4,273 nucleotides of DNA. Source: a virus (lineage: Duplodnaviria > Heunggongvirae > Uroviricota > Caudoviricetes). A model generated the notes under the pieces. That model was not told where the DNA came from. It was given only the letters and a program-made list of their open reading frames with translations, and did not search any database. The position numbers and the translations under genes were made by a program. Positions 460 to 4,273 of this stretch are shown piece after piece. The stretch's first letter is position 1. Each line of letters starts with the position of its first letter. The stretch is from IMG/VR virus record IMGVR_UViG_2695420650_000010. One strand, written 5' to 3'.

Positions 460-1229
460 ATGAAGTGGATTGTGATTGATACAGTTATCCAGCCATCATG
501 CGGAATATCTTTTTCAGTCATATGGAGTAAAATAAAATTAATAATCTGGTATCAATCGGATGCTTTCTTACCTCCTGAAAGTATATTTACACTGACTCAC
601 ACAGGCATCATGCTCAATAACAAAGTGCTACCTGTAACCATTTACAACGTAGTACCATTCAATAAAACATTCTGGAATTCAATCAAAAATAGCCAGGAAT
701 GCCCTACAAATACAGATAANNNNNNNNNNNNNNNNNNNNNNNNNNNNNNNNNNNNNNNNNNNNNNNNNNNNNNNNNNNNNNNNNNNNNNNNNNNNNNNNN
801 NNNNNNNNNNNNNNNNNNNNNNNNNNNNNNNNNNNNNNNNNNNNNNNNNNNNNNNNNNNNNNNNNNNNNNNATATAGCACCCTGACTGATACTGTAGTAC
901 CTAAGGTTCCAGAAACTGTGATGTATCNNNNNNNNNNNNNNNNNNNNNCAGTCATATGGAGTAAAATAAAATTAATAATCTGGTATCAATCGGATGCTTT
1001 CTTACCTCCTGAAAGTATATTTACACTGACTCACACAGGCATCATGCTCAATAACAAAGTGCTACCTGTAACCATTTACAACGTAGTACCATTCAATAAA
1101 ACATTCTGGAATTCAATCAAAAATAGCCAGGAATGCCCTACAAATACAGATAACGTATTGAATGAATGCTTTAATAACCGTTGCACTCTGCAAATATGTC
1201 CTTATGGACTAAAACAACAAAGTCCATAA
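460..1229 (+). CDS. hypothetical Cys-rich small protein; frame runs through two N gaps and a duplicated 205-bp segment (about 111 aa if the duplication is collapsed)
   Basis: ATG at 460 with AAGGA Shine-Dalgarno; stop TAA at 1227-1229. The frame is open across AT-rich DNA, where stops are frequent by chance. The C-terminal part has C-x10-C-x4-C-x4-C spacing ([23 protein letters not shown]). The minus strand here has no comparable ORF. True length is unknown because of the gaps. Confidence 0.4.
515..719. repeat. direct repeat copy 1 (205 bp), matching 949-1153 by eye
   Basis: Visually identical sequence at a 434-bp offset, ending exactly at the start of the N run. Confidence 0.8.
720..871. 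other. assembly gap (run of N)
   Basis: Contiguous n characters. Confidence 0.95.
928..948. other. assembly gap (run of N)
   Basis: Contiguous n characters; the 56 bp at 872-927 between the two gaps occurs nowhere else in the window. Confidence 0.95.
949..1153. repeat. direct repeat copy 2 (205 bp), matching 515-719 by eye
   Basis: Starts immediately after the N run and keeps the same reading frame as copy 1. Confidence 0.8.
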
Positions 1230-1248: not shown

Positions 1249-1285
1249 CAAAATCAATATAAACAGCCCCTCCGGAGAGGGGCTG
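1249..1285 (-). terminator. rho-independent terminator-like hairpin for minus-strand transcripts
   Basis: 9-bp GC-rich stem CAGCCCCTC / GAGGGGCTG (1264-1272 and 1277-1285) with 4-nt loop. On the minus strand it is followed by the U-rich tail TTTATATTGATTTTG; on the plus strand there is no U tract. Confidence 0.5.
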
Positions 1286-1676
1286 GAGAGTGGCGCTATG
1301 TGCCATTGCATGGTGCCGGGTGCCTCCCGGTGAATTCAGTACCAGCACCTGAATCCGCGATTATCCCATATACCTACTCGCTGATTGCCCCTCCGCACAG
1401 GGGGATTCACCATGCCAGTTTCTTTTAACAAACTCCCCGCAAACCAGACAACAGTCAACCGCCTGAATTGTGAAGTATTTAAAAATTTCTCCCGCTAACT
1501 GATACCCGGCTAACAGTCTGGCGTTTTCTTTTTCAGCAACGGGAAAGCAACAACCACCACACCCGCCACCAGCACACCGTCAGCCAGCACTGACATTATC
1601 CGGCTGCTGCAATGCCATTCACAAAAACAGTAAGCAATCACTTTTTACCGTAACAGGTGATAATCCAGATATGTAT

Positions 1677-2258: not shown

Positions 2259-2299
2259 NNNNNNNNNNNNNNNNNNNNNNNNNNNNNNNNNNNNNNNNN
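2259..2299. other. assembly gap (run of N) inside the tRNA cluster
   Basis: Contiguous n characters; true gap length unknown. Confidence 0.95.
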
Positions 2300-2583: not shown

Positions 2584-3642
2584 TCATCCGTTCTGGCTGA
2601 CTAAATCCTGTACTTCCCGAACCGTCTGCTCAAAACGTTCAGTCTCCAGCTCAACGCCAATTGCACGACGCCCGAGCGCCAGTGCCGCTTTCACTGTCGA
2701 ACCCAACCCCATGAAAAAATCTGCAATCAGGTCACCCGGACGACTGCTAGCGCTGATTATCTGCTGCAGCATTTCTGCCGGTTTTTCGCACGGATGTTTC
2801 CCGGGATAGAACTGCACCGGTTTATGCGTCCACACATCGGTATACGGCACCTGCACCGTCACGCCAAAATACCGCCGCAGATGTTTATATTCACTCAGCA
2901 GCTCCGCATACTGCCGGTTCAGTGAGGTATACGTATCCACCAGCTGGTGGTGGAGCTTTTCCAGTTCACCACGCCGATGCTTCTCTTCTGCCACCCGGGC
3001 AAACAGCGCCTGTAATTTCAGATAATCGCTTTCATTCGGCAACTGCCACTGACCGGCACTGAACCAGTGCGACACCATGTTTTTCTTTCCTGTGGCATCT
3101 GCAATCTGTTTTGCCGTTATCCCCAGGGCAGCTCGCGCATCACGAAAGTAAGAAATCAGCGGGGCCATCACATGCTGTTTCAGTGCACTGCCCTTCGCCG
3201 CATACCCGGCATCTTTCGGACGATACGGCCCCTGATAATGTTCCGCGAACAGAATGCGCTCTGTGGCGGGGAAATACGCCCGCAGGCTTTCCTTGTTGCA
3301 TCCGTTCCAGCGTCCGGACGGCTTCGCCCAGATAATATGGTTCAGCACACTGAAGCGTTCACGCATCATGATTTCGATATCAGATGCCAGGCGATGACCA
3401 CAGAACAGGTAAAGACTTCCGGCAGGTTTCAGCACCCGCCAGAACTGCGCCAGACACTGGTCCAGCCACTTCAGGTAATCATCGTCGCCCTTCCACTGGT
3501 TATCCCAGCCCTCAGGCTTCACTTTAAAGTACGGCGGGTCCGTGACTATCAGGTCAACAGAATTTTCGGGTAACGACCGGATAAATTCCAGGCAGTCGGC
3601 GTTGATTAACTCACAACTGGATATTTTTACAGTATTAAGCAT
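2584..3642 (-). CDS. DNA methyltransferase, beta-class N6-adenine or N4-cytosine (N6_N4_Mtase family), apparently orphan
   Basis: 352-aa ORF, ATG at 3642, TGA at 2584. Motif IV DLIVTDPPYF near the N-terminus; HPCEKP (HPxxKP-type) and AdoMet-binding motif I DFFMGLGST near the C-terminus. That order is typical of beta-class amino-methyltransferases (CcrM, M.HinfI, M.RsrI-like). No endonuclease gene is adjacent in the window. Target site cannot be inferred. Confidence 0.92.
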   Translation of the reverse strand: MLNTVKISSCELINADCLEFIRSLPENSVDLIVTDPPYFKVKPEGWDNQWKGDDDYLKWLDQCLAQFWRVLKPAGSLYLFCGHRLASDIEIMMRERFSVLNHIIWAKPSGRWNGCNKESLRAYFPATERILFAEHYQGPYRPKDAGYAAKGSALKQHVMAPLISYFRDARAALGITAKQIADATGKKNMVSHWFSAGQWQLPNESDYLKLQALFARVAEEKHRRGELEKLHHQLVDTYTSLNRQYAELLSEYKHLRRYFGVTVQVPYTDVWTHKPVQFYPGKHPCEKPAEMLQQIISASSRPGDLIADFFMGLGSTVKAALALGRRAIGVELETERFEQTVREVQDLVSQNG

Positions 3643-3674
3643 GGATCATTAAGCCTGTCTCTGATAGGCTCATT

Positions 3675-3693
3675 CTGCTTTTGCGCAAAGCAG
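3675..3693. promoter_or_regulatory. near-perfect 19-bp palindrome CTGCTTTTGCGCAAAGCAG upstream of the methyltransferase start
   Basis: Arms CTGCTTT / AAAGCAG around a central GCGC, 33-51 nt upstream of the ATG at 3642. A weak promoter-like pair, TTGCGC then 16 nt then TATCAG on the minus strand, puts the -35 at the palindrome centre. Candidate operator. Confidence 0.35.
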
Positions 3694-3734
3694 TGGGCCT
3701 GAGGTTTGCTTGTGAACCCAACGCATGAGCAGAT

Positions 3735-3774
3735 GGCTGGTGGGTGCCCCTAACACCCACCNCCCCCCCCAGCC
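3735..3774. repeat. inverted repeat GGCTGGTGGGTG / CACCCACC...AGCC interrupted by a poly-C tract (poly-G on the coding strand) containing an ambiguous base
   Basis: Left arm 3735-3746; right arm 3754-3761 plus 3771-3774, split by c-n-cccccccc at 3761-3770. The minus strand is G-tract rich (G8, GGTGGG, GGGG). Confidence 0.6.
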
Positions 3775-3791
3775 GCCCATTTACCACAAAT

Positions 3792-3815
3792 AAAAAAGCC
3801 TTCACTGCGGAAGGC
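3792..3815 (-). terminator. rho-independent terminator-like hairpin overlapping the stop codon of the 65-aa ORF
   Basis: 6-bp stem GCCTTC / GAAGGC (3798-3803 and 3810-3815) with 6-nt loop, followed on the minus strand by TTTTTTATTTG. The stem is short, so moderate confidence. Confidence 0.45.
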
Positions 3816-3999
3816 GTCTGTAACAACCGAACTGATAGTCTGCCAGACCCGCCATAACCAGCTGGGTCAGTATTAACTGGCAGCGTTCGCGTGAAAGGTA
3901 AGTATTCTGCGCTATCTCCCCGACTGTCGCCGGTTCGGTAACGCTTAATTCATTAAACACCACTCTGGCGGTTTCTGTCATATCCTGCTGTTTTAGCAT
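3802..3999 (-). CDS. hypothetical small protein (65 aa), possible helix-turn-helix DNA-binding protein
   Basis: ATG at 3999 preceded by a good Shine-Dalgarno (AAAGGAAAAG, about 6-nt spacer); stop TGA at 3802-3804. The segment TVGEIAQNTYLSRERCQLILTQLVMAGL has an HTH-like pattern. Sits between two terminator-like hairpins, directly upstream of the methyltransferase. Confidence 0.6.
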   Translation of the reverse strand: MLKQQDMTETARVVFNELSVTEPATVGEIAQNTYLSRERCQLILTQLVMAGLADYQFGCYRRLPQ

Positions 4000-4117
4000 G
4001 TCTTTTCCTTTTCCGGTTAACGTGACACACCAATAACTCTTGTCGAAAAAGCCAGCAAGCTGAAAGACAGGTATTCACCGCCACCAGCGCGTTTACTGTA
4101 CTGACGCGATTTCAGTC

Positions 4118-4143
4118 ATAAAAAACCCGCTCGGCGGCGGGTT
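4118..4143 (-). terminator. rho-independent terminator (tR'-like) for minus-strand transcripts
   Basis: Stem CCCGC / GCGGG (4126-4130 and 4137-4141), extendable by two A-T pairs, followed on the minus strand by six U (complement of A 4120-4125). Sits about 45-65 nt downstream of the candidate promoter. Confidence 0.6.
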
Positions 4144-4190
4144 GTAGAAACTCTTCTAACGTCAGGCATAAAACGCCCATCGTTATGACG

Positions 4191-4218
4191 AATTTACCAC
4201 AGATTCCGGAAAAATCAA
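4191..4218 (-). promoter_or_regulatory. candidate late promoter (pR'-like) with extended -10
   Basis: On the minus strand: -35 TTGATT (complement of 4213-4218), 16-nt spacer, TGgTAAATT (complement of 4191-4199). As I remember it, the lambda pR' -10 region is GGGTAAATT with -35 TTGACT. Position between the end of an upstream ORF and a terminator fits pR'/tR' architecture. Confidence 0.45.
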
Positions 4219-4273
4219 CCTTGTTACCTAGTTACCTTTTTTAACTGCCGCTCAGCCCATGCTTCTTCAATAT

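Follow-up and report, generated by a model that had tools for sequence, protein, structure and literature searches.

Does a run of G/C pairs in front of a prophage DNA methyltransferase gene act as a switch for that gene? In Helicobacter, Neisseria, Haemophilus and Campylobacter, homopolymeric G/C tracts underlie the phase variation of methyltransferases, and a tract of this general appearance is found in the stretch of DNA analysed here (4,273 nt; hereafter the window). Plus-strand positions 3761-3770 read c-n-cccccccc, which makes poly-G on the coding (minus) strand; in coding direction the methyltransferase ATG follows 120-128 nt further on. The original prediction, that such a tract cuts through a 12-bp inverted repeat some 120 nt before the gene, is borne out by the sequence itself and by a repeat search of the window, which confirmed the inverted repeat as two arm pairs around the tract; without nine extra bases, its stem pairs perfectly over 12 bp. 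The function proposed for the tract is another matter. As argued below, the tract is almost certainly not a real feature, and the uninterrupted hairpin would be the real sequence.

The window is the start of the late region of a lambdoid, Stx-phage-like E. coli prophage, with its genes on the minus strand. The antiterminator gene Q is annotated just upstream in relatives, and the same gene order, with Q before and stx or lysis genes after, occurs in phage 1720a-02, Stx2a phages, phiP27 and E. coli chromosomes. The methyltransferase has a single PF01555 domain; annotations of Stx2 phages and of phiP27 call it a DNA methylase, and it is classed here as an orphan phage enzyme of the Q-dependent late operon. 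A late transcript would need Q to pass two upstream terminators, and the hairpin would lie between the second of these and the methyltransferase. Downstream of the methyltransferase come tRNA genes and then a match to the STnc100 sRNA, and an IraM-like ORF lies on the plus strand. The STnc100 match is a strong one in Rfam (1255-1444, minus strand; 132.4 bits, E=4.7e-30) and sits downstream of the tRNAs, beside a small DUF3927 ORF. Coordinates are collected in Table 1.

Table 1. Positions of the features discussed, in window coordinates
Feature	Position	Strand	Remarks
Scaffold gap, 152 N	720..871	.	preceding 205 nt (515-719) recur at 949-1153
Scaffold gap, 21 N	928..948	.	preceded by a foreign 56-nt piece, 872-927
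Scaffold gap, 41 N	2259..2299	.	next 68 nt (2300-2367) repeat 2150-2217 (tRNA-Arg)
DNA methyltransferase, 352 aa	2584..3642	-	PF01555 (N6_N4_Mtase), E=7.9e-42
Non-coding leader, about 155 nt	3643..3797	-	between terminator and methyltransferase ATG
P4	3693..3675	-	hairpin after the junction
P1	3779..3775 with 3698..3694	-	UGGGC/GCCCA; 100% paired, one double change
P3	3733..3728 with 3710..3705	-	covarying helix
Hairpin P2	3735..3774	-	sense RNA GGCUGGUGGGUG-UUAGGGG-CACCCACCAGCC once the 9 bases are removed
GGCTGGTGGGTG	3735-3746	+	arm of the inverted repeat
Chi octamer, intact	3736..3743	+	distal palindrome arm
Loop CCCCTAA	3747-3753	+	sequence read
CACCCACC	3754-3761	+	8 nt preceding n
Sense-strand Chi position	3754..3773	-	broken here by the 9 extra bases
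Uncalled base n	3762	.	the window's fourth N-run; read as a scaffold join of two contigs over one N
C8 run	3763-3770	+	interpreted as a miscalled second copy of CACCCACC
AGCC	3771-3774	+	sequence read, after C8
Intrinsic-terminator-like hairpin with T-run	3798..3815	-	after the 65-aa ORF
65-aa ORF	3802..3999	-	PF01978 TrmB-family (helix-turn-helix regulator) match, E=0.0026, below family cut-off
tR'-like intrinsic terminator	4124..4143	-	downstream of the antiterminator Q gene of relatives

The nine extra bases (n plus eight C) are unique to the window among all the related sequences compared. All 23 phage matches are shorter by 8-9 nt at the tract, and a four-way alignment shows a single clean 9-nt gap within an otherwise conserved leader. 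The 188-nt leader has 3212 homologous places in 2055 of the 5426 complete E. coli genomes, every one without the tract; the best of these are identical at 179 of the 188 positions, that is, at everything but the nine bases, and none scores higher, so that no complete genome among those searched carries even a partial tract. A locus from E. albertii (L006) is likewise identical, at 179/179 positions, to the window minus the nine bases. The identical 352-aa methyltransferase recurs very widely (4314 index blocks), and in the ten genomes read that encode it the hairpin is uninterrupted in every case; from position 4273 to about 2563 (1.7 kb) the window is 100% identical to these ten genomes, the nine bases excepted.

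A broader search led to the same result. The pattern CTAACACCCAC-N{1,25}-CAGCCGCCCATT, which describes any insertion of 1-25 nt at the tract and matches the window itself, had no match among 2.9 million viral contigs or 185,579 species-representative genomes, and only one unrelated chance match in 241 million metagenome records. The C8 run is also unusual for the DNA of such loci: there is no G or C run longer than 6 in 393.5 kb from 96 related loci. No tract-length polymorphism was found among the relatives compared (23 phages, 3212 E. coli places, 10 genomes and the three collections). Of the two meanings that had been offered for the uncalled base, then, length heterogeneity falls away with the lack of any relative that has the tract, while a sequencing problem survives, in the form of an unmerged contig join.

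The quality of the draft bears directly on this second meaning. The window comes from a scaffold-level draft, and duplicated, unmerged sequence adjoins all three of its long N-runs (Table 1). The 56-nt piece between the first two gaps matches ten related loci (L086-L095) at 3116-3171, right after the STnc100 region there, and is assigned on this match to a different prophage arrangement. The scaffold is partly chimeric, and neither the gene content of 460-1230 nor the tRNA-Arg count is to be trusted.

The tract resembles these other gaps on a smaller scale, in that the n stands at a junction and is followed by a near-copy of the 8 nt that precede it. C8 matches CACCCACC at 6 of 8 positions, the two differences being A-to-C (T-to-G on the minus strand), and the 20 nt after the n (CCCCCCCCAGCCGCCCATTT) match the true sequence, CACCCACCAGCCGCCCATTT, at 18 of 20. 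The arithmetic of length agrees as well, since one N and 8 nt make up the nine extra bases relative to every relative. Written on the coding strand, the region reads ...GGGCGGCTGG[T>G]GGG[T>G]G-n-GGTGGGTG..., where each presumed miscall copies the preceding base; the presumed errors come directly after GGCGGC, at the point where the 12-bp inverted repeat begins. From this signature, rather than from reads, we infer that the c-n-cccccccc tract very probably marks two contigs joined without merging and is absent from the DNA of the organism itself.

How might such a join have come about? Two short-read contigs would have been set end to end over a one-N gap, with an 8-nt overlap left unmerged. 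On the minus strand the first contig would end ...AATGGGCGGCTGGgGGGgG, where the true sequence is ...GGCTGGTGGGTG, two T having been called as the preceding G; after the n, the next contig would restart at GGTGGGTGTTAGGGG... Two causes for a break at this place are likely. In one, the GGCGGC motif and the very stable 12-bp inverted repeat would derail Illumina base calling. Sequence-specific Illumina errors are known at GGC motifs and inverted repeats, where the miscalled base is usually the same as the preceding base and assembly gaps result (Nakamura et al. 2011, PMC3141275). The window has GGCGGC directly upstream, a 12-bp inverted repeat, a gap exactly there, and two miscalls that both equal the preceding base; it is by this signature alone that it is assigned to the published error profile. 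In the other, the assembly graph would be split by several slightly different prophage copies of the module in one genome. A single genome has up to six copies of the module, which differ slightly in this very hairpin arm, and several divergent copies of this kind would be sufficient alone to split the graph at the tract. The exact error mechanism is a matter of conjecture from the same features.

Three considerations count against a contig join. First, the 6/8 match of C8 to CACCCACC is weak taken alone, because the region is C-rich. Second, miscalls are absent from the contig ends that border the three long gaps, which would make the junction at the n the sole exception. Third, a very recent insertion private to this strain would look the same in every comparison made above. 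A general bias of the assembly toward C miscalls was also considered, on account of ggggacccgcccccg at 2396-2410, and was rejected when the same sequence was found in a complete genome. A degenerate tRNA-like remnant (...ggggacccgcccccgcacc... within 2368-2467, between the tRNA-Arg and tRNA-Met/Ile genes) has a similarly error-like look, yet it is identical in a complete genome (L004).

The best of the alternatives to a contig join is that the nine-nucleotide G-rich insertion is real, recent and private to the strain, and that it breaks the sense-strand Chi octamer (see below) and weakens P2 without any switching. The comparative data fit a private mutation and an artefact equally, and the flanks are in perfect register on both sides. 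Against this reading, expansion by slippage needs an existing run and the ancestral sequence has only GG here. There are no intermediate lengths in thousands of relatives, the site is otherwise strongly conserved, an uncalled base lies inside the tract, and unmerged overlaps are present elsewhere in the same scaffold. We consider this reading unlikely. A bolder form of it, in which a real G-run of at least 8 in one strain has destroyed Chi, remodelled P2 and created a nascent contingency locus in an E. coli prophage, is very unlikely; if true, the insertion would be a mutable, G-quadruplex-capable element in front of a late-operon methyltransferase.

The proposal that the tract is a slipped-strand contingency switch, turning the methyltransferase on and off, fares worse still. 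It draws on the likeness to phasevarions (Type III mod and Type I hsd systems in Haemophilus, Neisseria, Helicobacter and Campylobacter), in which a G/C homopolymer is likewise found near a methyltransferase gene. The likeness does not extend further. The tract is 120 nt upstream of the ATG, in a transcribed leader downstream of a terminator, rather than within an ORF or a promoter spacer; no sigma-70-like promoter was found on either strand in 3500-4273, and the methyltransferase would be transcribed from the upstream Q-dependent late promoter. The enzyme is assigned to the orphan PF01555 phage methyltransferases of late operons, not to Type I or Type III mod, and no res or hsd genes are annotated near it in relatives. 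The host is E. coli, relatives show no length polymorphism (none having a tract to vary), runs longer than 6 are absent from the 393.5 kb of related DNA, and the tract itself is most likely not real. We consider a phase-variation switch highly improbable. The case carries a caution of some general use, namely that homopolymers with ambiguous bases in scaffold-level drafts can mimic contingency loci, and that comparison with close relatives quickly settles the status of a suspected contingency tract in a draft.

The companion idea, in which the G-rich strand would fold into a G-quadruplex, as DNA or within the leader RNA, and so regulate the methyltransferase, is likewise highly improbable. A canonical G3+N1-7 motif is present with the tract, but a regex scan for four runs of three or more G, separated by loops of 1-7 nt, gave 0 matches in the restored form, which is the form in all relatives, so that the idea stands or falls with the reality of nine extra bases. 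The G-rich arm would also be sequestered in a 12-bp hairpin of -29.8 kcal/mol.

With the tract read as a contig join, attention turns to the uninterrupted hairpin, P2. The restored hairpin folds at -29.8 kcal/mol (z=-4.8), and 0 of 200 shuffles are as stable; with the insertion the fold is weaker, at -23.1 to -25.7 kcal/mol. The 46 aligned leaders in which it is conserved come from Escherichia, Salmonella, Citrobacter, Enterobacter, Klebsiella, Kosakonia, Mixta, Erwinia, Buttiauxella, Morganella and Providencia. The 5' arm of the sense strand, GGCUGGUGGGUG, is almost invariant in these leaders, and the 3' arm varies mostly by G-U changes that preserve pairing (UA:22/UG:19 at one pair, GC:38/GU:7 at another). 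Since these changes keep G-U pairing on the sense strand, they point to an RNA helix in the late transcript.

A wider set of 30 sequences, extending from Escherichia to Providencia, Xenorhabdus and Photorhabdus, gives the same picture. The seven basal pairs are 96.7% paired, compared with 22-57% in slid controls, and at three pairs at the base of P2 both partners have changed; none of 500 shuffles attains the covariation score, although such shuffles overstate significance because the sequences are related. Compensatory changes are seen in the hairpins of Providencia and Xenorhabdus. In Providencia and some Xenorhabdus, multiple compensatory changes keep the stem while the Chi octamer within it is lost, so that the hairpin structure is conserved in its own right. 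These patterns indicate that the hairpin is under selection in its uninterrupted form; what it does we can only infer, and the functions suggested for it below should be read in that light.

The second conserved property of the hairpin is the Chi octamer, defined here as exact 5'-GCTGGTGG-3'. The sense-strand octamer is exact in 41 of the 46 aligned leaders, and most Enterobacteriaceae loci have a Chi before the methyltransferase, near locus position 1379. The perfect palindrome of E. coli puts Chi on both strands. In the window, exact Chi octamers are found at 1566-1573(-), 2937-2944(-), 2943-2950(+), 3736-3743(+) and 4081-4088(-), five in all against 0.12 in shuffles, and a sixth is broken by the tract. 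Four of these six are on the sense strand of the late genes, just downstream of Q. The same bias is seen on a larger scale in 80 related loci (L006-L085; 311.5 kb), which contain 186 sense but only 39 antisense Chi. Within the methyltransferase ORF, CCACCAGCTGGTGG forms a palindromic double Chi.

In lambdoid genomes, co-oriented Chi have been described as clustering close to the right end, in the orientation that acts on RecBCD coming in from cos (Zheng et al. 2025, PMC12315714; Bobay et al. 2013, PMC3784561); such clusters are taken to recruit or tame the RecBCD that arrives from there (PMC12315714). The cluster in the window, downstream of Q and mostly on the sense strand, appears to be of this known kind and fits the right-end clusters of PMC12315714. 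By the orientation argument of that study, the leader Chi, an exact octamer that RecBCD entering at the cos-proximal (right) end would meet from its 3' side, is predicted to be oriented so as to stop RecBCD arriving from that end of the phage. The window departs from the described clusters in two respects: one candidate Chi lies in the stem of a conserved hairpin and is mirrored by the palindrome in E. coli, and the hairpin persists without the octamer in Providencia and some Xenorhabdus. A Chi octamer in a hairpin found across the Enterobacterales, within a co-oriented Chi cluster downstream of Q, is of real if modest interest.

P2 is one element of a larger leader. About 135 nt of the leader could be aligned over the 46 sequences, with a mean column identity of 84%, while the protein encoded downstream is only 62-80% identical in these loci. 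A three-way junction in which P1 encloses P2 (the Chi hairpin) and P3 is supported by the pair counts. In P3, the column pair 47-73 occurs as CG:22, AU:8, UA:8 and UG:4, and the pair 50-70 as UA:38 and CG:4. For the fold as a whole, 91.3% of cells are paired and the covariation score is 0.081 versus 0.047 in shuffled alignments, with 0 of 500 shuffles reaching the observed score, subject to the same overstatement as for P2. Compensatory changes across taxa are thus found in the leader helices. Two alternative pairings, AUGGGCG/CGCUCAU and GGCCCAC/GUGAGCC, also pair well but covary less (0.058; 68 of 500 shuffles reach this score), and were not adopted; there is room here for a leader that alternates between conformations.

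What kind of RNA might this be? Searches of Rfam 15 with the window and with the uninterrupted E. albertii leader gave nothing over threshold at the hairpin or leader. Two weak matches, one to the Pseudomonas sRNA P26 on the antisense strand (24.2 bits, cut-off 36) and one to Trp_leader at the tR' terminator (21.8, cut-off 41), were taken as chance. The Pas prophage sRNAs, as described in a preprint, are also a poor fit, in that they end in intrinsic terminators and the leader does not. In being non-coding and conserved over about 135 nt, with covarying helices, the leader is like the structured 5' leaders and cis-regulatory RNAs of phage genes in Rfam, from which it differs in having no Rfam family match. 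It is apparently a structured RNA that has been described nowhere before. Our best guess is that it forms a cis-acting 5' structure of the methyltransferase message, as part of the Q-antiterminated late transcript, and that it might affect stability, processing or translation. A structured leader RNA of about 135 nt, with no Rfam family, upstream of a widespread orphan prophage methyltransferase again has a real but modest interest, and the Chi hairpin or the leader could bear on the protection of Stx-type prophages and on expression of the late region.

Several smaller features of the leader deserve mention. The methyltransferase ATG (3642) has no recognisable Shine-Dalgarno sequence, and GATC (3645-3648) lies directly upstream of it. 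Most genera keep this GATC in the context CUGAUC(U/C)AUG, which might be covered by an AUCAG/CUGAU helix. Immediately 5' of the hairpin (3775-3790, minus strand) is GTG(A/G)AAATG, a motif that persists also in Photorhabdus and Xenorhabdus, whose leaders are otherwise different. The sequence GTGAAATG before the hairpin was considered as a weak extended -10, or as a ribosome-binding site plus AUG of a mini-ORF, and was rejected, the length and frame of the ORF not being conserved across genera. The candidate mini-ORF in question, MGGWWVL followed by a stop, is present in many Enterobacteriaceae and takes its two Trp codons from Chi. A 63-aa ORF that begins with TTG (3635..3826) is regarded as an artefact, since single-base indels in the 46-sequence alignment exclude a conserved frame.

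Finally, the hairpin site is also a place of rearrangement. The hairpin, the terminator and the 65-aa ORF travel as one module. In phiSTEC1575-Stx2k (L097, 2480-2560), the hairpin and the next few nucleotides are kept, while a helix-turn-helix gene takes the place of the remaining leader and of the methyltransferase; since the hairpin is retained where the methyltransferase has been replaced, it belongs with the upstream module of 65-aa ORF and terminator rather than with the methyltransferase. A different rearrangement is found in phage PhiR5_1 (L096, about 2500-2530), where the leader sequence GGCTGGTGGGTG is fused directly to TGGTGGTTGTTGC... of the DUF3927 gene, with removal of the methyltransferase and the tRNAs (compare window positions 3735-3774 and about 1540-1575). 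This fusion looks like a deletion between two short repeats that contain Chi. The arrangements in these two phages, PhiR5_1 and phiSTEC1575-Stx2k, mark the hairpin site as a mosaic junction.
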